Part shown: one piece after another, positions 3,887-58,666 of the stretch
How the letters are laid out: each line of letters starts with the position of its first letter
Position numbering within the stretch: position 1 is the stretch's first letter
NCBI GenBank assembly: GCA_019912885.1
Contig: JAIOHV010000229.1
Span: 3,846 to 67,845 of the forward strand
From: a bacterium
GTDB taxonomy: Bacteria > Lernaellota > Lernaellaia > JACKCT01
Length of the DNA: 64,000 nucleotides
Direction of reading: 5' to 3'
Notes under the pieces: generated by a model
What the model was told of the DNA's origin: nothing
Database searches by the model: none
What the model saw: only the letters and a program-made list of their open reading frames with translations
Position numbers and translations under genes: made by a program

Positions 3887-5548
3887 TCAAATCGTCCCGC
3901 GCGCTTCTTCGAGCAGCTCGTCCACCTGGATCTCGAAAAATCCGTAGGTCGTCGTCGTAAACACGCGGCCGCTCTTCGGAAGCACGAGGATCGCATAGTT
4001 GCGCGGGCCGACGTTGACCGTCGCAAGCACGCGCTTGTCTTTCCACGAGACGACGTGGAACTCGCCGTTGAAATAGTTGCCGATGTAGAGCAGATCGCGC
4101 CGCGCGTCCGCGGCGACCAGATGCAGGCCGATGCCGATTTTCATCGAGCCGGTCACCGTCAGTGTCGCCGGATCGATCCCGTATAGCCGCCCGGTCAGCG
4201 GATTGACAAGAAACAGGTCGCCCGTGGCAGGCTCGGTCTCGAGCCCAAAACCAAACGGCCACATGAGCGTCCGGCGGATTTCGAGCGTGTCGTTGTCAAG
4301 TTCCGCGACGCCGGGCGGGATCCAGTCAACCTGCGTGTAGAAGTGCCCCGTCTTCGGCGACTTCACCACCACGTCGGCGCTGGGATTCGGGACGCCCATC
4401 AAGATGCGTCGCGGCTGGATCTGCCAGATCGTCAACTCATGCGGAAGAGGGCGCCAGGCCAATTCGTCCGAAGGCGTTTCGTAAAAGACGATCATCCGGT
4501 TTCTTTCGTGCTCGATAACGATCTTTTGAACGTCGCGGTGCGCCGGGTACTCGCGATAAAGTTGCCCGGCGTCGTCCGGGCAGACGCAATTGCGATCGCG
4601 GGATTGCGAGATGACCTCGCATGCGAATTCGACCGGATGCTCGAACGCCTTGGCAGGAATGCGCAAAAGGGTTCGGAAGCCGACGTTGCCCACCCAGAGC
4701 GTTTCCGACGCCGTGTCGTAGGTGATCGCCTCGGTCCGAGTCGGCAGCGGCAACGCGTCGAATCGGCCGGTCGTCAATTCGTAGCGGAAAAGACTGCTGT
4801 ACGGGTGCGGCCGTGAAGCGGGAAACGCGGACATGACGTCCGCAGCGTAGATGTAACGCTCTTCCGGATCGGCCGTCAGGTAGTACAGAAAGTGCGGCGG
4901 ATTTTCGATTGGGTATTCGCCGACGGGAAAATGCGGACACGACCCGGCGGGATCCGGTCCATGCGCGCGCGCCGGTCTGCCATAGGCATACGTCGCAAGG
5001 GGAACCACGCCCCGTTGATCGAGCGTTTTCTCATACGCGCTCTCATCCAGAGGCCGCTCGAAATCGACCCACCGGTAGGCATACGTGGCTATCGCAAGAA
5101 AGAAAATGAACGGATAGATCGCCGGAATGTTTCGACGCCGGGCGAGCAACGCCGACACGGCGACCGCCACGGCCACAAGCCATGGCACAATCGGCTGAAC
5201 GAGCGATTGAAAGACGATGAGAACGGAAAATATCGGAAACGCGATCGCGACGAGCAGCGTCCACGCCGCGATGCGCGTGTAGCGGGCCGCGCGATACCAG
5301 GCGCGCCGATCGGCATTTCGTTCCACGCGTCCCGCCGCGACCACGGCGCAAAACAATAGCGGCGGAATAAAGAGGATGCCCCATGAAATGGCTTGCTGCG
5401 GGATCCTTTGGCTGATGGCGAAAAAGTCGGGCGTGACGATTTTTGTGAGATGGTGGGCGTAGGCATAAAACGATAGTGCGAGAAATAACGCGAACGCCGC
5501 GCCGCGTCGCATCTTCGCCGCCACCGCCCTGGCCCGATGACTTGTCAT
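3887..5548 (-). CDS. Membrane-anchored protein with C-terminal beta-propeller-like domain (hypothetical)
   Basis: The N-terminal 200 aa is multi-TM. The C-terminal region carries repeated strand-like motifs (...LYIGNYFNGEFHVVSWKDKRVLATVNVGPRNYAILVL...) reminiscent of YVTN/NHL propellers. The start overlaps the upstream DegT stop (ATGA), implying operon coupling. Confidence 0.6.
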   Translation of the reverse strand: MTSHRARAVAAKMRRGAAFALFLALSFYAYAHHLTKIVTPDFFAISQRIPQQAISWGILFIPPLLFCAVVAAGRVERNADRRAWYRAARYTRIAAWTLLVAIAFPIFSVLIVFQSLVQPIVPWLVAVAVAVSALLARRRNIPAIYPFIFFLAIATYAYRWVDFERPLDESAYEKTLDQRGVVPLATYAYGRPARAHGPDPAGSCPHFPVGEYPIENPPHFLYYLTADPEERYIYAADVMSAFPASRPHPYSSLFRYELTTGRFDALPLPTRTEAITYDTASETLWVGNVGFRTLLRIPAKAFEHPVEFACEVISQSRDRNCVCPDDAGQLYREYPAHRDVQKIVIEHERNRMIVFYETPSDELAWRPLPHELTIWQIQPRRILMGVPNPSADVVVKSPKTGHFYTQVDWIPPGVAELDNDTLEIRRTLMWPFGFGLETEPATGDLFLVNPLTGRLYGIDPATLTVTGSMKIGIGLHLVAADARRDLLYIGNYFNGEFHVVSWKDKRVLATVNVGPRNYAILVLPKSGRVFTTTTYGFFEIQVDELLEEARGTI

Positions 5549-6747
5549 CGGCCGCGCACCGGGAAAATTTCTTGCATCGCGGCGGTGAGGCGATCAAACC
5601 TGCGATCGTTCAATCCGCCATAGAGCGGCAGCAATACCGCGCGCGCGTGGACGTTAGCGGCCACCGGGCAATCGGACGCGCCCAGCGCGGCGGCACCGTC
5701 ATCCGCCACCTCGCCGCCGATGCCGATATCCAGTCCCCGGCGCATCGCCAGACGGCGCAAGTCGGCGGGCGGTATCTCGGACAACGCAACGAAATTGTAG
5801 AAAGCCGGCTCACCGGCAAGATCGCGCCGCTGCGCGACAAGGCCCGCCGGAAGCCCCGCCGCGAGGGCGTCGAATCGGGCGTTCAAGGCGGCGTTTCGCG
5901 GATCGAGATCGCGTAAGCGCGCGATTCCCAGCCGCGCCTGAAAAACGCTGAAGGCGACTTTGCGACGAATCCGGTCGTGGCTGCCGCGATAGGCGCGTTC
6001 GAATCGCGCCGCCATCAAGGGCGAAAAAAGAACGCGCGCCGCGAGTCCATAGATCGGGCTGCGAATCACGCCCTCCTCGATCCACGCCAGCAAAGCCTTT
6101 TTCAATGCCGGCCATTCCGTTACCGGGCGCTCGTCGATCTCCCGCGCGATGTCCGCGCCCCTTCCCGCATCCTTCACGACCACGATGCCGCCGCCGTAGG
6201 TGGGCAGCGCCTTGTTCACCTCCAGGCTGAAAAACGAGGCCGCGCCGAACGTGCCGACCTTGCGCCCATTCACCGTGGCGCCAAGGGCGTGCGCGCAGTC
6301 CTCGACGACCGAAAGCCCTCGCTCGTCGGCGAGCGCGCAAAGCGCTTCGATATCGCACGGCGCACCGAACAAGTGCGTCGCGAGGACGGCGCGCGTCGCG
6401 GGCGTGATGCGCGCCCTGACGCTTTCGACATCGATATTGAATCCCACCGGTTCGATATCCGCCGCGACCGGGCGCAACCCGTGCGCCTGCATGAGCGGCA
6501 GCAATTCGCCAAGCGTGTAAGCGGGCACGATGACCTCGTCGCCCGGCCGAAGACCGACGGCCTTGAAGGCGAGCATCATCGCATCGCGGCCGCTTGCGAC
6601 GGCCCGGGCGAATTCGCATCCGAGGTATTCGCGAAACCCCGCCTCGAACGCGCGCACGTCGTCACGCCCGCGCGCGTCTCCCGCGAGCGATCGGCACCAG
6701 AACGAGACGTCACGAAATCGAAAGGACAGGCGTCGCCGCGGAATCAT
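5545..6747 (-). CDS. DegT/DnrJ/EryC1/StrS-family PLP-dependent sugar aminotransferase (copy A)
   Basis: Translation MIPRRRLSF...GDEVIVPAYTLGELLP...HLFGAPCDIEALCALADERGLSVVEDCAHALGA...FFSLEVNKALP has the fold-type-I aspartate aminotransferase-like signature of this family. It is about 50% identical to the paralog at 14448..15683. The track ORF extends to 6810. Confidence 0.8.
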   Translation of the reverse strand: MIPRRRLSFRFRDVSFWCRSLAGDARGRDDVRAFEAGFREYLGCEFARAVASGRDAMMLAFKAVGLRPGDEVIVPAYTLGELLPLMQAHGLRPVAADIEPVGFNIDVESVRARITPATRAVLATHLFGAPCDIEALCALADERGLSVVEDCAHALGATVNGRKVGTFGAASFFSLEVNKALPTYGGGIVVVKDAGRGADIAREIDERPVTEWPALKKALLAWIEEGVIRSPIYGLAARVLFSPLMAARFERAYRGSHDRIRRKVAFSVFQARLGIARLRDLDPRNAALNARFDALAAGLPAGLVAQRRDLAGEPAFYNFVALSEIPPADLRRLAMRRGLDIGIGGEVADDGAAALGASDCPVAANVHARAVLLPLYGGLNDRRFDRLTAAMQEIFPVRGR

Positions 6748-15849: not shown

Positions 15850-16692
15850 ATGCAGGCGTTTCGATTTTACGAAGTCTCGGTGACGGGGATCGCGGGGGAT
15901 ATCCGGGGGCAATTCGCCGAGGCCAGCGGCTCGCTGCAACCTGTCGCGCACGCCGGCGACGCGCCGCTTATCGACGAATGGATCGTCAACGACGACGTCA
16001 GCGGCGCGGCGATTCGCCTGGCGATTCGCGGCGAGGCCGGCGCGCGCCGCCTCGCGCCGATCGGTATCGATCCCGCGCATCGGCTGACGCGGCTCTATGG
16101 TGCGCTCGCGTATTTTCGCGCGGGGATGATCGCGCGCGGCCTGGAGAAGGTGCACTCGTTTCGCTACGCCGACAATCTCGACATGGAGATCGCGGCCGGT
16201 GTCCTGTCCGCGGATGAGCGCATGAACGCCTTCGCCGAGGCGTTTCTCGGGCCGTGGTCGCCGATCGACGTCGCCTTTCTTTCGCCGCTGCGCGCGATCG
16301 CGGGCATCGACGCGCACGCCGACCCGGACGACATCCGCCGCGTGCTTCGCGACTGGTACGCGCGCGCCGAGGCGTGGTCCACGCGCGTCGCGGGTTTTTC
16401 GTATCACGGCGGCGCGTTCATCCGCGAGGAGTGCGGCGTGGAGAAAACCATCCTCGCCAAAGGCGACGAATGCCGCCTGTTCCGCGAGCCGTACAACCCC
16501 GTCGACCCGAACGCGATCGGCATCATGCACGTGTCCGGCCGCAAACTCGGCTACGTGCGCAAGACCATCGCCGCGCTCGTCGCGCCGCTCATGGATCTCG
16601 GCGTGGTGTATCGCGCGAAAGTGGGCGCGTTCCTGTCGAACGAGTTCGATCCGCCGGAGCGCGTTTACGTGTCGGTGGAGCGCGTGGGGTGA
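15850..16692 (+). CDS. Hypothetical protein with C-terminal HIRAN domain
   Basis: The AAGGAG RBS sits 6 nt before ATG 15850. The C-terminal ...VAGFSYHGG...GDECRLFREPYNPVDPNAIGIMHVSGRKLGYVRKTIAALVAPLMDLG matches the HIRAN consensus (NPxDxNAI ... GyV). The N-terminal about 190 aa is unassigned. Confidence 0.65.
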   Translation: MQAFRFYEVSVTGIAGDIRGQFAEASGSLQPVAHAGDAPLIDEWIVNDDVSGAAIRLAIRGEAGARRLAPIGIDPAHRLTRLYGALAYFRAGMIARGLEKVHSFRYADNLDMEIAAGVLSADERMNAFAEAFLGPWSPIDVAFLSPLRAIAGIDAHADPDDIRRVLRDWYARAEAWSTRVAGFSYHGGAFIREECGVEKTILAKGDECRLFREPYNPVDPNAIGIMHVSGRKLGYVRKTIAALVAPLMDLGVVYRAKVGAFLSNEFDPPERVYVSVERVG

Positions 16693-17693
16693 AGCGCACC
16701 GCCGTATTTCGCGGCGATCGCCGCGGCGGTACGCCGCACGTCGTCCGCCAGTTCCGGCGGTGCAAGAACGCGCACGCGGTCCGTGTAGGAGAGCACCCAC
16801 CACACGACCTCGCGCAGGCCGCCGACGGTCATCGCGACATCCACGGTGCCGTCCACGTTTCTCGTGTTCGACTGCGTGGGGTGGAAAAGGATTTCCTCGG
16901 CGTAGTGCGCGACATCGGCGTCGAAACGCACGCGCACCTCGACCGGCTTGCCGTGATAGATGCCGAAATTGCGATCGACCTTCGCCGCGAGCGAAAACCC
17001 GTCCGGCAGATCGAAGCGGTCGTCCGTGATCGCGGCCGATTGAACGCGGCGCACGGAGAAGATCGTCAGATCGTCGTGCTGGGCGGAGTACGCGGCAAGA
17101 TACAGAATCTGCCGGTGCACCACGATGCCGCACGGCCGGATGGAATATTCGCGCGGCGCTTCCCACGCGGGATTGAAATACGTCATGCGGCAGACGCGGT
17201 GCGCGAGGATCGCACGGTTCAGCGTGGAGATGATCTCTTTTTTCTCGCGGTAGAGGGCGCGCTGGTGATGGATCGGCGCGAAGTGATCCTCGATGTCCAC
17301 GAGACGCGCGACGACGTGCGGCGGGAGCGTCGAGGAGATTTTCTGGCGCAGGCGATCCATGCCGTCCTTGTACGGCGTACCCTCGAAGAAATCGAAAAGG
17401 CCCGACGCGAGCCACGCGGCGATAAGCTCGTCGTGATCGAGCGGAAACGGCGGCATGTCCGGCGCGGGCCCGATCACGCTCCAATACTTGACCGCGCCCT
17501 CCTGATGAATGACGCCGAGCGGAAATCCCGCCGCGCCAAGCGCCTCCAGATCGCGCTCGATCGTCCGCCGCGCGACGCCGTGCTCCTCGACAAGCTCCGC
17601 GACGGTCACGCCGACCTTCCGGTGCGCGGCGAGCTTCATAAGGATATTCCACTGGCGCACAAGCTGTTCGTTTCGGCCGATGTGGTCGGGCAT
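16665..17693 (-). CDS. WYL-domain transcriptional regulator (wHTH-WYL-WCX architecture)
   Basis: The N-terminal HTH is ...LVRQWNILMKLAAHRKVGVTVAELVEEHGVARRTIERDLEAL (DeoR/HTH_11-like). The central WYL-like region is ...ILAHRVCRMTYFNPAWEAPREYSIRPCGIVVHRQILYLAAYS... It is convergent with the HIRAN gene (28 bp 3' overlap) and divergent from 17822 gene. Confidence 0.75.
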   Translation of the reverse strand: MPDHIGRNEQLVRQWNILMKLAAHRKVGVTVAELVEEHGVARRTIERDLEALGAAGFPLGVIHQEGAVKYWSVIGPAPDMPPFPLDHDELIAAWLASGLFDFFEGTPYKDGMDRLRQKISSTLPPHVVARLVDIEDHFAPIHHQRALYREKKEIISTLNRAILAHRVCRMTYFNPAWEAPREYSIRPCGIVVHRQILYLAAYSAQHDDLTIFSVRRVQSAAITDDRFDLPDGFSLAAKVDRNFGIYHGKPVEVRVRFDADVAHYAEEILFHPTQSNTRNVDGTVDVAMTVGGLREVVWWVLSYTDRVRVLAPPELADDVRRTAAAIAAKYGGALHPTRSTDT

Positions 17694-17821
17694 GGGGACG
17701 CTCTCTTTCGAATCGCGAAATCATGCGAAAATGCTGTTTATGGTTGACGCCGAATTGAGCCTACGTTTTTATAGCGGATCGTGTCGTACATTAAAAGTCC
17801 TTAGAAACAACGGAGAACGAA

Positions 17822-18826
17822 GTGCCTTTATACAACAGACATTTGTCGAACCCGGCTTTTGAATACCTCTTAAGCAGCGATGGCGCGGACCTTCTGAAAC
17901 TTTTGCTGTCACCCGGCGTCAAAACGACAAATGCCGGGATACGCGTCCCTATCGACGTCCAGTTCCGACGGGGCGATTTTATCCAACTGTACGCCGGAAC
18001 CGCGTGCGTTCTGCGGTTGCAGTGGAACGGGACGACGTTTCAGTCAATACCGAAAAGTGTCCACAACTTCATCCGTTTGCGCGAAAACACAGTCACTGCG
18101 ATTGTGGAAAATTGGGAGCACCATCGAGACTCGGTTGAAATTAATGAACCGAGGTTCTTATTAAATGAATCGACGTGGCAAGCTGCCCTCGCTTTTCGCT
18201 TCGGACGGAATTTCAAAAAAGGCGATCCATTTTGTGTCATTGACGCCCAAATGAGGATGGAAACGCTTGCAGACAGCCGTGAACTAGAAATTGTCCAAGA
18301 AAGTTATAGGCCGATTCGCCAATCACTATGCGAATTGCCGGTAATTCGTTTGCCAAAGGAGTTTGCGTCCGGCAGTTTCTGGGATCAAATCGACATTCTC
18401 GGAATAAACGGTGATGGCAAGATCATCGTTGTCGAAATTAAGGTCGGGACCAGCGCGCGTGGCGTCTATTCGGGGCCGATTCAAGCGGGAGGCTATACCG
18501 AGCTCTTGACGGAATTTAAAGGCGACCTAGTTGCCGGCGTCCGTCCCCTGATCGAACAAAAAAAGCAACTTGGCCTACTACCCGCAAGTGCTCCGGATTT
18601 TAACCCGTCTGGCGACTTCGAAATTGCACCGATTCTGGCTGTCGGTGAACCGAATTGGCGCTCGTCGATGTGGAAAACGCTTGGAATCGTTCTGTCTGAA
18701 TGCCTCGAAAAAAAGTCGGAGACTTTTAAGGATTTTCGAATTTGTACATTCGACGATGTCGATTTCGACAAACAGTCAATGCGACCGGAACAAATCGCAC
18801 GGCTAAATCTGCCTTGGTATTTCTAA
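17822..18826 (+). CDS. PD-(D/E)xK-like (restriction-endonuclease-fold) protein, horizontally acquired
   Basis: It has a GTG start with GGAGA upstream. GC is markedly lower than its surroundings. The C-terminal half contains ...FWDQIDILGINGDGKIIVVEIKVG..., i.e. a D-(x13)-ExK catalytic triad pattern of PD-(D/E)xK nucleases. The remaining domains are unassigned. Confidence 0.55.
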   Translation: MPLYNRHLSNPAFEYLLSSDGADLLKLLLSPGVKTTNAGIRVPIDVQFRRGDFIQLYAGTACVLRLQWNGTTFQSIPKSVHNFIRLRENTVTAIVENWEHHRDSVEINEPRFLLNESTWQAALAFRFGRNFKKGDPFCVIDAQMRMETLADSRELEIVQESYRPIRQSLCELPVIRLPKEFASGSFWDQIDILGINGDGKIIVVEIKVGTSARGVYSGPIQAGGYTELLTEFKGDLVAGVRPLIEQKKQLGLLPASAPDFNPSGDFEIAPILAVGEPNWRSSMWKTLGIVLSECLEKKSETFKDFRICTFDDVDFDKQSMRPEQIARLNLPWYF

Positions 18827-20064
18827 CCATCCACCGCGCCGCCCATCAGGTCGGCGGCAACTGCGTCGAGATCGAATACGACGGGCACCGTTTGTTGCTC
18901 GACGCGGGGAGTTCACTGGACGCGGACGAACATGCGGACGACATCCCGCCGACGCTCGACCGGAAGCGCCCGATCGACGGGCTCGTCATTTCGCATCCGC
19001 ATCTCGATCACTACGGCCTGCTCGATCGCCTTCCCGCCGATTGGCCGGTGTGGTCCGGCGCGCCGACCGAAATTCTCATGCGCCTCACGGCTTCCATCGG
19101 CCGCAAACGATATCGGCAGTCGTTTCGCCACTACCGAAGCGGCAAGGCGTTTCGCGTTGGGCCGTTCAAGGTCACGCCCTTTCTCGTCGACCATTCCGCC
19201 TTCGACGCGCACATGCTCCTCGTCGAGGCCGGCGGCCGGCGCATCTTTTACTCCGGCGATTTCCGGCGCACCGGACGCAAAAGCCTGTTGACGGAACGCC
19301 TCATGCGAAAGCCGCCGCGCGACGTGGACGTGTTGTTGCTCGAAGGAACGACGCTCGGCCGCACCGGCGATTTTCCGACGGAGACGGACATCGAGCAGCG
19401 TCTCGTCGATCTGCTGAAAGACACGAAGGGGCGGATTTTCGTGACGTGGTCGGCGCAGAACATCGACCGCACCGTGACGCTCTACCGTGCCTGCAAGAGG
19501 GCTCGCCGAACGCTTGTTCTCGACGTCTATGCCGCCGGCGTTCTCGATCGCCTGGCGACCGATTCTAGCAAGATTCCGAGGCTCGGCTGGCCCTGTTTGC
19601 AGGTCGTCGTCACGAAATCCATTGCGCGCATGTACAAGGATCGGGCGCGCGTGAACGACGCGGCATTCGTGGATCGCTGCGCGACATCCGGCTTTGCGTT
19701 TGGCGCCGACAAACTCGAATCCCGCGCGCGAAACGTCATCATGCTCCGCCCGTCGCTTTGGAAGGACTACGCGCGCAAAGGCGTCACGCTGACACCGCAT
19801 GACGGCTGGGTATTTTCGATGTGGTCCGGCTACGAAAAGAAAACCGATTACGCGGAATTGCGGACCGCTTTCGAGTCCGCCGGTGCGCGCCTTGAACGCA
19901 TCCACACAAGCGGCCATGCCGCGCCGGACGACCTCGTCGCGTTTGCCGACGCTGTCGCCCCGCGACATCTCGTGCCGATCCACGGCTTTGACTGGGATCA
20001 ACACCTGCACCGCTTCAAAAACGTGAAGCGCTTGCGCGACGGCGAGCGATTCGCGATCGTTTAG
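18814..20064 (+). CDS. Metallo-beta-lactamase fold nuclease of the beta-CASP type (RNase J/Artemis-like)
   Basis: The MBL motif ISHPHLDHYG (HxHxDH) and the beta-CASP C-terminal signature RIHTSGHAAPDDL...PRHLVPIHG are both present. The start is uncertain (TTG 18814 or nearby). It overlaps the stop of the upstream gene. Confidence 0.75.
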   Translation: MVFLTIHRAAHQVGGNCVEIEYDGHRLLLDAGSSLDADEHADDIPPTLDRKRPIDGLVISHPHLDHYGLLDRLPADWPVWSGAPTEILMRLTASIGRKRYRQSFRHYRSGKAFRVGPFKVTPFLVDHSAFDAHMLLVEAGGRRIFYSGDFRRTGRKSLLTERLMRKPPRDVDVLLLEGTTLGRTGDFPTETDIEQRLVDLLKDTKGRIFVTWSAQNIDRTVTLYRACKRARRTLVLDVYAAGVLDRLATDSSKIPRLGWPCLQVVVTKSIARMYKDRARVNDAAFVDRCATSGFAFGADKLESRARNVIMLRPSLWKDYARKGVTLTPHDGWVFSMWSGYEKKTDYAELRTAFESAGARLERIHTSGHAAPDDLVAFADAVAPRHLVPIHGFDWDQHLHRFKNVKRLRDGERFAIV

Positions 20065-39915: not shown

Positions 39916-42051
39916 ATGTTCGACAAAATTTTTCGCGGATGGGTTTGGCGCGCGGCGATCGCGATTGCGTGCGCTTTGATTCTCACCGTAATAGCCGGCG
40001 CGGCAATCGAGCGCGCGGTCGCCGAGGACGACAAGGGCGATTCGCCCCCCTCGTCCGAAGCGACCCCGACGCCGACGCCCACCCCTTCACCCGCTGCGTC
40101 ACCCGCGCCGGCGGCGGAATCGACGCCGGCGCCCGATGCGACGCCGGTGGACGCAGAGGCCACGCCGGCCAAACCTCCCGACGATGGTCTGCCGCCGATC
40201 GAGGCGTATCTGAACATCCGCCGCGCGGTGGGGCCGACGTGGTCGCCCGACGGGCAGAGCCTCGTGTACCTCTCGAACGATACGGGCACCTATCAGGCGT
40301 GGAAGATCGCCGCGGACGGCGGAGAGCCCGTGCGTTTGACGCAGTTTGAAAACACGATCGGCTTCGTGGAATACCTGCCGAACGCGCGCCGCATCTTGTT
40401 CGGCATGGACGAAGGCGGCAACGAGCGCACGCAGATCTACATCATGAACGACGACGGCATGGACGTCGTTCGCCTGACCTCCGACGAAAACGTCATCCAC
40501 ACGCTCGGCGCGGTGGATCGCGACGGCAAGCGCATTGCCTACGCGAGCAACGCGCGCGACCAGCGCTACTTCGACGTGTACGTCATGGATCTCGCCACGC
40601 GCCAATCGCGCCTCGTGCTGCAGCAGGATGCGTACAACGAGGCAGCCGCGTTTTCGCCCGACGGAAAATTCGTCGTCGTGTCGACGTGGGAGTCGAACTT
40701 CAACAACAACCTCACGCTCGTCGAGATGCCGTCGCTCGCCGATCAGCTCCTGACTCCGCACTCCGGATGGGCGACGTACACCGACATCGCGTGGCCGCCG
40801 GGAGCGGACGCGTTCTATCTTATATCCAACCTCGGGCAGGATTGGTCGAAGGTCGCAACGCTCGAACCAAAGGAGCGCGAGCTCGCCTACAAGGGCACGG
40901 GCAAGTGGGATGCGCAGACGCTGGCGATCTCGCGCGACGGCTCGCGCCTCGCGTACACACTGAACGTCAATGGCCAATCGACGCTGGCGCTTGTCGATCT
41001 CAAGCAGGGCAAGCCGCTGCCCGTACCGGCGATCGAGGAGGGCATCATCGGCGGGCTCGAGTTTTCGCCGGACAGCAACAAGCTCGCGTTTCACTTCAGC
41101 TCTCCCACGCGAACGCACAACGTCTGGATCGCGGACCTGGCCGCGAACACCGCGGCGCCGCTGACCGACGCGAGCCTCGCGGGGATCGACCCGGCAACGT
41201 TCGTTTCCCCGCGCCAAGTTCGCTATCGCGGCCACGACGACCTTGTGATCCCGGCGTTCCTCTACGTTCCGCCCGGCGAGAGCGACGGCCCGCGCGGTGT
41301 CGTCGTGTACGCGCACGGCGGACCGGAGGCGCAGGAGCGGCCGGATTTTTCGGGGCTATTTCAATATCTGCTCTCGCGCGGCATCGCGATCTTCGCGCCG
41401 AACGTTCGCGGCAGCACGGGGTACGGCAAGACCTACGAACATCTGGACGACAAGCGCCTGCGCCGCAATTCCTTGCGCGACTACGCGGCGGGGGTGGAAT
41501 TTCTGAAATCGGCTGGCGGGTTCGACGCGGAAAAAATCGGCATCTTCGGCGGCAGCTACGGCGGATACGTCGTGCTGGGGAGTCTTGCGGAATATCCCGA
41601 GTTATTCGCGTGCGGGGTTTCGGTTGTCGGGATTTCGAACTTCGTCACGTTCCTGGAGAACACCGGCGCATGGCGGCGAACGATCCGCGAGGCGGAATAC
41701 GGGACGCTCGCCGAGGACCGCGAGTTCCTGGAATCGATCAGCCCGACAAACCAGGTCGATACCATGCGCGCGCCGCTCATGGTCATCCAGGGCGCGAACG
41801 ATCCGCGCGTGCCGGCGAGCGAATCCGATCAGATGGTCGCCGCGCTGCGCGAGCGCGGGCGGGAAGTGTCCTATCTCCTCTATCCCGACGAGGGGCATGG
41901 CCTCGCCAAGCTGAAAAATCGCCTGGACGCTTACCCGAAGGTCGCGGATTTTCTACGGAAATGCGTCGCGGACCCGGCTGGAGCTCTGAAAACGGAATCG
42001 GATGTAGAAAAATCGTCGAATTCCGCCCCGGATGCGTCCACCCTGCCCTGA
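39916..42051 (+). CDS. S9-family serine peptidase (prolyl oligopeptidase / dipeptidyl-aminopeptidase-like; beta-propeller + alpha/beta hydrolase)
   Basis: An N-terminal TM/signal segment is followed by a Pro/Thr-rich linker, a propeller region and a C-terminal hydrolase domain with the nucleophile motif GGSYGGY and a ...DEGHG... His box. An alternative TTG start lies at 39880. Confidence 0.85.
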   Translation: MFDKIFRGWVWRAAIAIACALILTVIAGAAIERAVAEDDKGDSPPSSEATPTPTPTPSPAASPAPAAESTPAPDATPVDAEATPAKPPDDGLPPIEAYLNIRRAVGPTWSPDGQSLVYLSNDTGTYQAWKIAADGGEPVRLTQFENTIGFVEYLPNARRILFGMDEGGNERTQIYIMNDDGMDVVRLTSDENVIHTLGAVDRDGKRIAYASNARDQRYFDVYVMDLATRQSRLVLQQDAYNEAAAFSPDGKFVVVSTWESNFNNNLTLVEMPSLADQLLTPHSGWATYTDIAWPPGADAFYLISNLGQDWSKVATLEPKERELAYKGTGKWDAQTLAISRDGSRLAYTLNVNGQSTLALVDLKQGKPLPVPAIEEGIIGGLEFSPDSNKLAFHFSSPTRTHNVWIADLAANTAAPLTDASLAGIDPATFVSPRQVRYRGHDDLVIPAFLYVPPGESDGPRGVVVYAHGGPEAQERPDFSGLFQYLLSRGIAIFAPNVRGSTGYGKTYEHLDDKRLRRNSLRDYAAGVEFLKSAGGFDAEKIGIFGGSYGGYVVLGSLAEYPELFACGVSVVGISNFVTFLENTGAWRRTIREAEYGTLAEDREFLESISPTNQVDTMRAPLMVIQGANDPRVPASESDQMVAALRERGREVSYLLYPDEGHGLAKLKNRLDAYPKVADFLRKCVADPAGALKTESDVEKSSNSAPDASTLP

Positions 42052-42129
42052 TGTGCGGTCAAAAAACGGCTGTGATTTTGGTTAGATAGCTCATATTGCT
42101 AAATAGGACCATTGTGGTACAAATAAGCC

Positions 42130-42263
42130 AAGTCCAGTGGCTCCTTGAAAAAGGAGTCACGGACCCTTCCCTCCTTTGGACGTGTTGAATCGAAGTCCCT
42201 CCTTCTGAAAGACACGACCCAAGGTGACATCGCCAGGCCCCGGAAAACCGGGGCCCTTTTTTT
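42130..42263 (+). ncRNA. Candidate small RNA (about 135 nt) ending in an intrinsic terminator
   Basis: The region is AT-richer and non-coding. A putative sigma70-like promoter is present (TTGCTA ... TACAAA near 42096-42130). Internal hairpin ggctccttgaaaaaggagtc and C/U-rich stretches are present (cccttccctccttt, gtccctccttctg). It ends in the terminator at 42236-42263. Confidence 0.3.
42236..42263 (+). terminator. Rho-independent terminator
   Basis: The hairpin ggccccgg-aaaa-ccggggcc is followed by T7 (42257-42263). Confidence 0.7.
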
Positions 42264-42403
42264 GGGATTTTTCGGGATTTCGACGAAATCTTCGAGGCGA
42301 TACCGTCGATGCGTGCCAGGAATCGAAACCGCCAACGCGCCCACAAAAGCAAACCCCGCAAACTTTCGTTCACGGGGTCGCTTTCTGCCGACGGGCCGTT
42401 TTA

Positions 42404-42474
42404 AGTCATGCCCAGGACCGGGCTATACAGCCTTCGCTGCAGTGAGCCACAGGACGCAGCATGTAACGCTTCAT
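42404..42474 (-). CDS. Small ORF (22 aa, MKRYMLRPVAHCSEGCIARSWA) with strong Shine-Dalgarno
   Basis: On the minus strand, AGGAGGAAAGCACC-ATG gives a canonical SD with 8-nt spacing. The peptide has two Cys and no homology call is possible. Confidence 0.3.
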
Positions 42475-42774
42475 GGTGCTTTCCTCCTGTATTTGCGGCG
42501 TTGATCGCCGCAAGGCAATTTCAAGCAATTTAAGGACGCGTGTGGTCAATGTCAACCGATCCCGCCCGGTGCAAGGCGCGTTTCGCGCGGCCATCCGCGG
42601 CCGACCAAACACCGCGCCTCACGAGTTTTATCGTGTCAAATCGCGTAAAAATTTGCCGTCAGGGGGTTCACGGCCTGGCACGCGGCGGCGGCGTCTAGGA
42701 ACGCGGCGCTTGTTTGGATATGATTGCTTCTCGTTTCTCCCGGAACTACGCAAGCATGTGTAAGGAATATCACG

Positions 42775-57654: not shown

Positions 57655-57991
57655 GAAAAGCCCCTCGCTCCGCGCCGCCTGCCCCAAGCAACCGAAGGCG
57701 TCCGGCGCGGCGTCCGAATCGGACACGCGGTATGCCTAAAACGAAACGCACGGGGCCGCAAGGGCGCAGCGCGCCGGCCGCGGCGACCCCGCTCGCGGTC
57801 GGCGACTCGCACCGCGGGCGCGGGGGGTTCTCTCCGATCGAGTAAGCGGATAGAATGCGTCAAATTTGCAAGGGGGAATGTGAGCGTGGTACGCGAATTA
57901 ACAGCGGAGCGAGGCCCAGCACCACTAGGCCAAGGTCAGTTTTTTGCGCGGAATGGGGAATCTAGCAGGCACCTGTCACGGTTTTTTTACG

Positions 57992-58666
57992 ATGAATAAA
58001 TTAATTTTGGCAGCAATTTGCCTTGTAGCTGGCGGCTGCGAACTATATCATCCGGCACCGCAGATCAAGCCAGAAGACCGGACCGCGAAAGCTGAGTCGG
58101 CAATAAATTCAATTGATAATAACATTGAACAAATGAAAGCTCAGAACAGAGATAAGCTTGACATCTTGTCCTATAAATGCGAAATGGATTCTTATATATA
58201 CAATAATTACCATCTTCGATATGACTTTACGGCGTGCCACGAATTAAAGCTACAAAAAGAACGCGATCTAAAATCACTACAACGGGAGCAATATCGAAAA
58301 AGAATAGGGACAGACGATAGCGAGGAAAATCCCGAAAAAGCACTAAAATATTTTTGCCACAATTTTGAACAATTGCTGCTTGCAGAAATCAAGCTATATG
58401 GATCCATGGAAGATACCAAAAAAATTATGCCGCTATCAAAGCACCTACAGAATCAGCGCAATATCACTGAATTTCAAGCGCAAAGAAATGTCTACGTCAA
58501 AGCAACACGGGGATCGCTTGCGAAATATTATAAACTTGGCGGAACTATTAATATTAAAAAAGAATTCGAGAAAGGGCAAGATGGCATAACGCTGGCGTGT
58601 CCAACTATTTCTCCGCATATATTCGGATATATTAGCAGATATAACTTAATGCTAAAGTTCAAATAA
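57992..58666 (+). CDS. Foreign low-GC lipoprotein (hypothetical)
   Basis: Translation MNKLILAAICLVAGGC|ELYHPAPQ... has a lipobox. The protein is about 225 aa and K/N/Y/E-rich. Local GC drops sharply (roughly 35-40%) between about 57840 and 58690, unlike the flanks. Confidence 0.65.
   Translation: MNKLILAAICLVAGGCELYHPAPQIKPEDRTAKAESAINSIDNNIEQMKAQNRDKLDILSYKCEMDSYIYNNYHLRYDFTACHELKLQKERDLKSLQREQYRKRIGTDDSEENPEKALKYFCHNFEQLLLAEIKLYGSMEDTKKIMPLSKHLQNQRNITEFQAQRNVYVKATRGSLAKYYKLGGTINIKKEFEKGQDGITLACPTISPHIFGYISRYNLMLKFK

Follow-up and report, generated by a model that had tools for sequence, protein, structure and literature searches.

A sharp low-GC island in a Lernaellota contig probably marks the fast-evolving nuclease subunit of a conserved two-gene module

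In type II restriction-modification (RM) systems, a variable and compositionally atypical PD-(D/E)xK endonuclease is paired with a conserved methyltransferase. The locus analyzed here has a similar outline, with the difference that the conserved gene codes for a beta-CASP nuclease of the metallo-beta-lactamase (MBL) fold. It is located in a stretch of 64,000 nucleotides, hereafter the window, of the Lernaellota contig JAIOHV010000229.1 (positions 3,846 to 67,845 of the forward strand; assembly GCA_019912885.1). In this window the guanine-plus-cytosine (GC) content falls sharply over a gene for a predicted PD-(D/E)xK protein that lies immediately upstream of the MBL gene. We consider it probable that this island is the coding sequence, together with a 128-bp leader, of a fast-evolving PD-(D/E)xK subunit in a conserved, self-contained two-gene module, and that rapid turnover of the subunit is behind a GC offset observed throughout the family. 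Turnover would consist of allele replacement combined with fast divergence of the nuclease subunit and would yield a family-wide low-GC pattern, of which the offset in the window (-13 points) would be the extreme end.

Sliding-window analysis showed that the GC content drops from 0.65-0.69 to 0.46-0.54 across approximately 17690-18830, and then goes back up to 0.61-0.65. The open reading frame (ORF) at 17822-18826 has a GC content of 0.495, with values of 0.55, 0.40 and 0.53 at the first, second and third codon positions (GC1, GC2 and GC3), while the seven genes that flank it have GC contents of 0.63-0.68 and GC3 values of 0.78-0.86. Compared with all 1005-bp windows in the 64 kb (mean 0.638, standard deviation 0.036), the ORF has z = -4.0; equally low windows are 1.2% of the total, nearly all of them from a second island at about 57.8-58.8 kb. 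Taking the 35 other genes of the window as reference, the codon adaptation index (CAI) of the low-GC ORF is 0.431 (z = -4.9), and that of the MBL gene, which is host-like in composition (GC 0.627, GC3 0.78), is 0.664 (z = -0.4). A preliminary description of this DNA, made from its sequence alone, had reported a sharp low-GC island coinciding with a PD-(D/E)xK-like gene, and this statement held: the gene has 49.5% GC against a window mean of 63.8%, the difference from the flanks is 13-16 points, where less than 5% had been named as the value speaking against an island, and the CAI calculation proposed there gave the low z value quoted above. Both A/T-rich strings that it cited occur in the sequence, and the PD-(D/E)xK-like label agrees with the predicted fold and the D191/E205/K207 signature described below. 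The extent it gave, 17760-18830, was accurate at the right edge and too short at the left, where the drop begins at about 17694, just past the start codon of a WYL regulator gene; the return to about 68% GC at the MBL start was overestimated, since the MBL gene has 62.7% GC.

Both edges of the island are sharp and coincide with the WYL start codon (17693) and the stop codon of the low-GC ORF (18826). The left part of the island is the leader (17694-17821, not assigned to either strand), a divergent, AT-rich (44.5% GC) intergenic region between the WYL and nuclease starts. The nuclease gene starts with the GTG at 17822, and a GGAG Shine-Dalgarno sequence is located 6 nt upstream of it. No consensus sigma-70 site was scored in the leader, scans for promoters and terminators produced nothing above shuffled sequences, and a search of Rfam returned zero matches within 17.0-20.5 kb. 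The island edges have no flanking direct repeats other than short chance repeats and no transfer RNA (tRNA) gene, the sole tRNA being 20 kb away, and no recombinase or integrase was found among the genes neighbouring the island. A 16-nt imperfect direct repeat was observed with one copy in the leader (TTGACGCCGAATTGAG, 17744-17759) and the other inside the low-GC gene (TTGACGCCCAAATGAG, 18240-18255), possibly by chance. An assembly chimera was ruled out, as two run assemblies that are independent of each other (SRR15662001 and SRR15662000) have identical sequence across both edges, and a 102-kb contig with NCBI sourcing carries the same low-GC protein. The contig of locus L002, considered as a different gene context, proved to be 100% identical to the window, its deviating gene calls being edge artefacts.

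The low-GC gene (17822-18826, + strand) encodes a protein of 334 amino acids without matches in Pfam, NCBIfam or PHROG. When 5.8 billion clusters were searched by a word index, the only hit was the protein itself, listed as 'hypothetical protein' in a metagenome-assembled genome (MAG). An exhaustive HMMER search of 1.84 billion representatives recovered 175 relatives at E <= 1e-3, the best of them 39% identical; all are unnamed and none has a Pfam domain. The residues conserved across this family are E116, D141, D191, E205-x-K207 and Q221-xxx-Y225. They include the catalytic D...(D/E)xK signature, in which D191 is invariant and E205 and K207 are found in at least 90% of 68 family members, and a QxxxY motif located after the ExK strand, with Q221 and Y225 nearly invariant. 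The ExK region of the window protein reads DILGINGDGKIIVVEIK. The order of the motifs is one that we take to be of the RecB/NucS/Cas4 type. An AlphaFold model built on the family alignment (predicted local distance difference test score 89.7, predicted template modelling score 0.90) contains the restriction-endonuclease-like alpha/beta core, and its best structural match is NucS, a repair endonuclease. No match below E = 0.02 was obtained with Foldseek against the PDB, which marks the modelled protein as a divergent member of the PD-(D/E)xK fold, with no close solved relative, and a predicted nuclease. Sequence searches of the PDB, with either the protein or its family profile as query, had no significant result.

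The protein differs from the described nucleases that it resembles. Despite the structural match, it has no Pfam NucS match, and neither the sequence membership nor the two-domain architecture of NucS/EndoMS was found; it also lacks a Pfam PDDEXK match. Unlike Cas4, it has no Pfam Cas_Cas4 match and no cysteines of the iron-sulfur type among the conserved columns, and the DUF4263 nuclease domain of Shedu (SduA) was not detected. Two further properties set the family apart from the NucS, Cas4 and RecB nucleases: a distinct N-terminal region of about 110 residues, in which R6, D45, R49, Y57, G59 and T61 are conserved, and a partnership with a beta-CASP gene in every case. Comparison with PADLOC-DB 2.0 yielded only marginal local matches over the ExK motif, to PDC-S11 (E = 0.003) and PDC-S18. 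A phage origin was ruled out, with the MBL in no phage record and the nuclease without a PHROG match.

The MBL gene (18814-20064, + strand) codes for the conserved partner, a beta-CASP MBL-fold nuclease of 416 amino acids that is RNase J/CPSF73/Apollo-like. The protein has Pfam matches to Lactamase_B_2 (1e-17), Lactamase_B and RMMBL (1.4e-5), and its HxHxDH motif is intact; residues H61, H63, D65, H66, H127, D149, H368 and H390 are invariant. Profile searches of the PDB identified RNase J, CPSF73, Integrator-11, Apollo and Cas14 as relatives. Although the Lactamase_B_2 and RMMBL domains and the HxHxDH and other His/Asp motifs are shared with RNase J, CPSF73, Apollo and Cas14, the protein is not RNase J proper, scoring 78.6 bits on NCBIfam TIGR00649 (cut-off 400) and, at about 416 amino acids, lacking the RNase J C-terminal domain; it is also far from the Cas14 of type VII CRISPR (37.5 bits, cut-off 800). 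It has no match in PADLOC-DB 2.0. More than 3,227 homologues were found, the top ones 55-66% identical, and in contrast to the known beta-CASP nucleases the protein belongs to a large family of its own (more than 3,000 members) defined by the adjoining variable nuclease.

The MBL start is most likely the TTG at 18814, inside the last nuclease codons, which results in an overlap of 13 nt; the gene calls of a Logan contig place the start at the same position. At this junction (18811-18840, + strand) the nuclease C-terminal codons L-P-W-Y-F-stop enclose the TTG and the GC content switches. Alignment of the window with L005 showed that TGCCTTGG(TAT)TTCTrACCATCCAyCGCG is conserved there, and L102 has the same overlapping junction, with the TTG within the L-P-W-(Y)-F-stop codons. 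Since the junction is conserved in L005 and L102, the 3′ edge of the island is an inherited gene junction and not an insertion scar. The overlapping stop and start would couple translation of the MBL to that of the nuclease.

The nuclease family has no stretch conserved enough for anchoring, and loci were therefore anchored on the MBL. The sample consisted of 80 MBL-anchored loci from GTDB species genomes of many phyla, or 92 when duplicates are included. Nearly every MBL among the 80 loci has a neighbour of 300-350 amino acids encoded on the same strand. An iterated profile seeded with the window nuclease converged and joined 56 of these neighbour ORFs, and with duplicates included, 64 of the 92 loci have a profile-confirmed adjacent partner, with an MBL of 410-440 amino acids. 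Homologues of the low-GC protein directly adjoin MBL genes in distant lineages and in both gene orders; the nuclease comes first, with an overlapping junction, in P0123, and the MBL comes first in P0124 and P0125. Homology and gene order thus show the pairing to be ancient and widespread in both gene orders. They also show the predicted nuclease and the MBL to be the conserved core of a two-gene module, because homologues stand beside the MBL in 64 of the 92 loci and the nearest relatives have kept the junction. At L034, in an acidobacterial MAG, two MBL copies stand in tandem (4120-5336 and 5341-6493) and each aligns to the one MBL of L036, which points to a tandem duplication.

The compositional difference is not particular to the window. 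It was assessed in 43 deduplicated loci with a full-length MBL and a homology-confirmed partner, leaving out partners identified by position only; in some high-GC loci (for example, L065, L068, L078, L019 and L020) the GC3 of such partners is lower than their overall GC, and these are probably wrong-frame ORFs. The partner has a lower GC content than the MBL in all 43 loci (mean -6.7 points, median -6.3; Wilcoxon p = 2e-13) and a lower GC3 in 37 of them. When only the profile-aligned core of the partner was considered, all 43 loci again had a partner poorer in GC than the MBL, by a mean of 6.8 points. As a control, 125 neighbour genes outside the module differ from the MBL by a mean of -0.5 points, and the partner is below the mean neighbour of its own locus in 33 of 40 loci (p = 2.5e-7). 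The MBL does not differ significantly from the far flanks (+0.9 GC points). Both genes track the GC content of the host, with slopes of 0.84 for the MBL and 0.88 for the partner, and the offset is about -6 points across every host-GC class; the window, with -13.3 points, ranks fourth of 43, and the deepest offset is -17.5. The nuclease partner is therefore systematically lower in GC than the MBL and the neighbour genes in all host-GC classes. The negative sign persists even in hosts of 34-45% GC, unlike what transfer from random donors predicts, and, as the partner is lower than the MBL in every locus, low GC alone is no mark of a one-off acquisition here. Among the MBL-anchored loci L014-L093, those in hosts below 50% GC have an MBL that averages 3.8 points GC-richer than the flanks, and up to +8.6, as if compositionally buffered upward.

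The partner also evolves quickly. Loci whose MBLs are 80-90% identical have partners that are 33-76% identical, and partner omega values of 0.07-0.36 indicate purifying selection. The partner-to-MBL ratio of nonsynonymous divergence (dN) is 1.5-2.3 in co-diverging pairs and rises to 4 in L075/L081 and 6.2 in L034/L036, where the synonymous divergence (dS) is saturated in the partner and not in the MBL. Partner dS is about 1.4-2 times MBL dS in L057/L062, L016/L022, L029/L038 and L042/L046, which are four of the five unsaturated co-diverging pairs (the exception is L056/L057); a higher rate at the protein level is therefore insufficient as the only explanation. In L075 and L081, which come from two Xanthobacter species, the MBL and the initial ~170 nt of the partner are 79-81% identical, as is the sequence just downstream. 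The ~750 bp in the middle are essentially non-homologous, and only in L075 do they have a low GC content (0.47-0.58 vs 0.60-0.69). Similarly, homology between L034 and L036 extends over the MBL and over a patch upstream of the partner, whereas the partners themselves are not shared; the GC content of the L036 partner is 0.32-0.51. These two comparisons show replacement of the partner between homologous flanks, with the AT-richer allele on one side.

Exchange of partners is apparent on a deeper scale as well, as the partner phylogeny is discordant with that of the MBL. Over its full length, the window partner is most similar (30-32%) to partners of the most distant MBLs (36-39%: L007, L010 and L012), and the closest GTDB MBL loci (56-60%) have a partner type that only the profile detects. 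The very closest MBL (P0003 on L102, 66%) has the closest partner (P0122-type, 37-39%) and the same junction, and the other partner type accompanies the next-closest MBLs (62-63%, on L103 and L104). By this distribution, partner type was switched in an ancestor of the window and L102, and the pair has since then been consistent with co-divergence.

A switch could also have occurred later, in the window lineage itself. It is conceivable, although somewhat unlikely, that recombination recently put an AT-richer allele of the same subtype in the place of a resident partner, breaking at the junction and within the promoter region, and that the GC content of the donor has not yet ameliorated. The pattern is the one found in L075 relative to L081 and in L036 relative to L034, and the conserved junction, 25 nt in length, could have anchored recombination at one edge while the other lies where homology ends at the WYL start; however, no donor-like allele is known, the best match being 39% identical. 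The offset of the window is the fourth deepest of 43 and that of its relative L102 is only 4.6 points, but partner identity of 37-39% at an MBL identity of 66% is within the co-diverging range, so that a second swap is not required. Random donors, moreover, would not produce a negative sign in 43 of 43 loci unless the pool of alleles were AT-shifted.

We think it unlikely that the low GC is maintained in place without any transfer, whether by selection, with rare codons or AT-rich DNA throttling or silencing a toxic nuclease, or by AT-biased mutation in a fast-evolving gene under weak constraint. The offset has the same sign in the 43 loci and all host-GC classes, and partner GC still tracks that of the host (slope 0.88), as such processes would predict; nevertheless, several high-GC loci (L012, L016, L022, L064 and L081) have fully host-like partners, which means that low GC is not required. 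GC3 accounts for most of the difference in the window, but the GC3 difference is nearly gone in low-GC hosts. Likewise, partner dN and, in most pairs, dS are above those of the MBL, but in both pairs that can be tested the deep offsets coincide with demonstrable replacement.

Divergent to the module is a gene for a transcription regulator with helix-turn-helix (HTH), WYL and WCX domains (16665-17693, - strand; Pfam HTH_11, WYL and WCX), which matches the PADLOC WYL 'CRISPR-associated signalling' models with E = 8e-34. A gene for a HIRAN-domain protein (15850-16692, + strand; Pfam HIRAN, E = 7e-13) lies tail-to-tail with it, with a 28-nt overlap. The regulator is a facultative neighbour: only ~12 of ~80 independent loci have a WYL-like ORF at 5 kb or less from the MBL, and its position and orientation vary. 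When metagenome loci were anchored on the window WYL, six were recovered at 65-76% identity. Four of them (L096-L099) keep the tail-to-tail HIRAN gene at 49-58% identity, and the MBL and the nuclease are both missing from all six. Comparison of the window with L096-L099 by blastn revealed homology from inside the HIRAN gene (~16100) to ~17695, ending at the WYL start codon, a point that coincides exactly with the onset of the GC drop. In L097 and L098, the side of the WYL gene on which the window has the module is occupied by a type I-C CRISPR-Cas locus (Cas8c, Cas7, Cas4 and Cas1, with a short ORF in the Cas2 position) and an array of ~21 repeats. L097 also has LexA and a RecA-like gene near the WYL-HIRAN pair. 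The closest WYL orthologues (76% amino acid identity) keep HIRAN and lack the MBL and nuclease; judging from these loci, therefore, WYL-HIRAN is a conserved unit of its own, and the whole nuclease-MBL pair is a variable cargo beside it. The window WYL resembles the BrxR/CapW regulators in its HTH-WYL-WCX architecture, in being divergent to a candidate defence operon and in having orthologues that flank a CRISPR-Cas locus. Unlike them, it is conserved with HIRAN rather than with the module, most copies of which have no WYL gene. The regulator may control the module from the AT-rich divergent promoter region (17694-17821). That WYL-HIRAN is found beside differing defence cargos, the window module in one case and a type I-C CRISPR-Cas locus in the other, offers a clue to the recruitment of WYL regulators.

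The neighbours of the module in 42 loci are heterogeneous, with no conserved third gene. Those that recur are WYL/WCX regulators, RM methyltransferases, a HindIII-type restriction endonuclease, MADS components, DRT reverse transcriptase, UzuA (Uzume), IS110 transposases and polymorphic-toxin-type domains, and single loci adjoin a type I methylase or ubiquitin-like Multi_ubiq/Prok-E2/ThiF-JAB genes. MBL orthologues are present on nine plasmids, one of them next to an Eco57I-type methylase and a GIY-YIG nuclease; in plasmid loci L094 and L095 the partner is unconfirmed or truncated. A defence-island-like arrangement was observed at L003 (6427-10013), where a 61%-identical MBL lies beside an ImmA/IrrE-type peptidase with an HTH protein and a Multi_ubiq/Prok-E2/ThiF-JAB set. 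We infer that the module is a mobile conflict system directed against plasmids or phages, because its distribution among phyla is patchy, the catalytic residues are conserved in both proteins, the two genes appear translationally coupled, and one subunit is hypervariable and replaceable. In such a system, the variable PD-(D/E)xK nuclease would recognize the target or make the first cut, and degradation of the nucleic acid from this entry point would fall to the beta-CASP enzyme. As a bolder and tentative proposal, one that we hold with less than even confidence, the module may be a previously undescribed and widespread two-gene immune system against mobile elements, present in thousands of loci across bacterial phyla, in at least one archaeal MAG and on plasmids, in which replacement of cassettes from an AT-shifted pool of alleles diversifies the specificity subunit and low GC is a predictable marker of an arms race.

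A role in DNA repair or the response to damage was also considered, with a NucS/EndoMS-like endonuclease and an SNM1/Apollo-like beta-CASP exonuclease acting together, under a WYL regulator of the PafBC/DriD kind and with a HIRAN 3′-end-binding protein nearby. The similarity of the nuclease to NucS in structure, although not in any Pfam match, and the inclusion of the Apollo/SNM1 DNA exonucleases in the beta-CASP family would suit this role, as would the HIRAN and WYL genes that adjoin the module in the window, the LexA and RecA-like genes of L097 and the fact that some WYL regulators sense single-stranded DNA. We find it unlikely nonetheless, given that the module is patchy across phyla and plasmid-borne, that its heterogeneous neighbours are of mobile and defence types with no repair genes conserved, and that a hypervariable, replaced subunit is atypical of housekeeping repair.

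Recent insertion of a single foreign low-GC gene between a WYL and an MBL gene already in place, adding an effector to them, is very improbable: the edges are sharp and at gene boundaries, the codon usage is strongly foreign and ordinary searches make the gene look like an orphan, but its family accompanies the MBL even in distant lineages, the junction is conserved, WYL is found near the MBL rarely and in varying positions and has orthologues that lack both genes, the edges have no direct repeats, integrase or tRNA, and low partner GC is universal in the family (43/43). The preliminary description, which had proposed probable horizontal acquisition of the gene, was thus correct in so far as exchange shapes the gene family, through discordant phylogenies and cassette replacement, and mistaken as to the single insertion. 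Its idea of a WYL-MBL unit augmented by a foreign effector is contradicted by the wide occurrence of the nuclease beside the MBL and the scarcity of WYL there (~12 of ~80 loci). The comparison that it suggested, with orthologous loci lacking the insert, gave WYL-anchored loci without both genes and a partner in 64 of the 92 MBL-anchored loci. Dips in local GC content are commonly interpreted as foreign insertions, an interpretation that here would single out the wrong unit and imply the wrong history; the dip probably marks a subunit with rapid turnover in a conserved module, and all sampled genomes with the module show it.

Several observations weigh against rapid turnover of a subunit in a mobile defence module as the account of the island. 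At the window locus no recent replacement is demonstrable, as the nearest relative (L102/L005) shares the partner type and the junction and fits co-divergence. The L102 partner is only ~4.6 points below its MBL, an offset much shallower than that of the window, and the relation between partner discordance and offset depth is not significant (rho 0.25, p = 0.30, n = 19). Of the 92 MBL loci, 28 have no profile-confirmed partner, several of these with an adjacent ORF of similar size, and the evidence for homology of the most distant partners comes from an iterated profile run against a small database. The surroundings in the window are housekeeping operons rather than a defence island; those upstream serve sugar and envelope biosynthesis, and downstream there are genes for cytochrome c and a Nar-type oxidoreductase. 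Apart from the marginal local matches, neither protein has a model in PADLOC. Searches of the literature for beta-CASP/MBL proteins with PD-(D/E)xK nucleases or for WYL-linked defence gave papers on type VII CRISPR or nothing at all, and none that described such a pair.

Two other regions of the window deviate in composition. The second island is deeper, at about 57.3-59.2 kb, its lowest 1005-bp window having 41.7% GC. It contains an ORF (57944-58666) for an orphan protein of 240 amino acids with a lipoprotein-like N-terminus (LVAGGC) and a CAI of 0.352 (z = -6.5); the protein has no PHROG match, and in Pfam only a sub-threshold match to DUF5101. A third, milder dip is found at 42051-42724, where ~670 bp of 55% GC without a predicted gene separate two long genes.

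Of the described systems, the type II RM pairs are the ones with which the module can best be compared. Like them, it is a two-gene mobile unit that combines a hypervariable, orphan-like and atypical PD-(D/E)xK nuclease with a well-conserved enzyme, and it is found on plasmids and beside other defence genes. The conserved partner, however, is a nuclease where RM has a methyltransferase, and the neighbourhood has no conserved modification enzyme; self/non-self discrimination, if there is any, must therefore work differently from that of RM. If the module is indeed a defence system, it would add to the repertoire a two-nuclease architecture without a modification enzyme or nucleoside triphosphatase, and an AT-shifted hypervariable partner beside a conserved enzyme could serve as a simple compositional signature to search for arms-race subunits elsewhere. 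The module and its compositional regularity appear to be undescribed, yet they fit known themes, those of the orphan-like, AT-rich and fast-evolving nucleases of mobile defence units.

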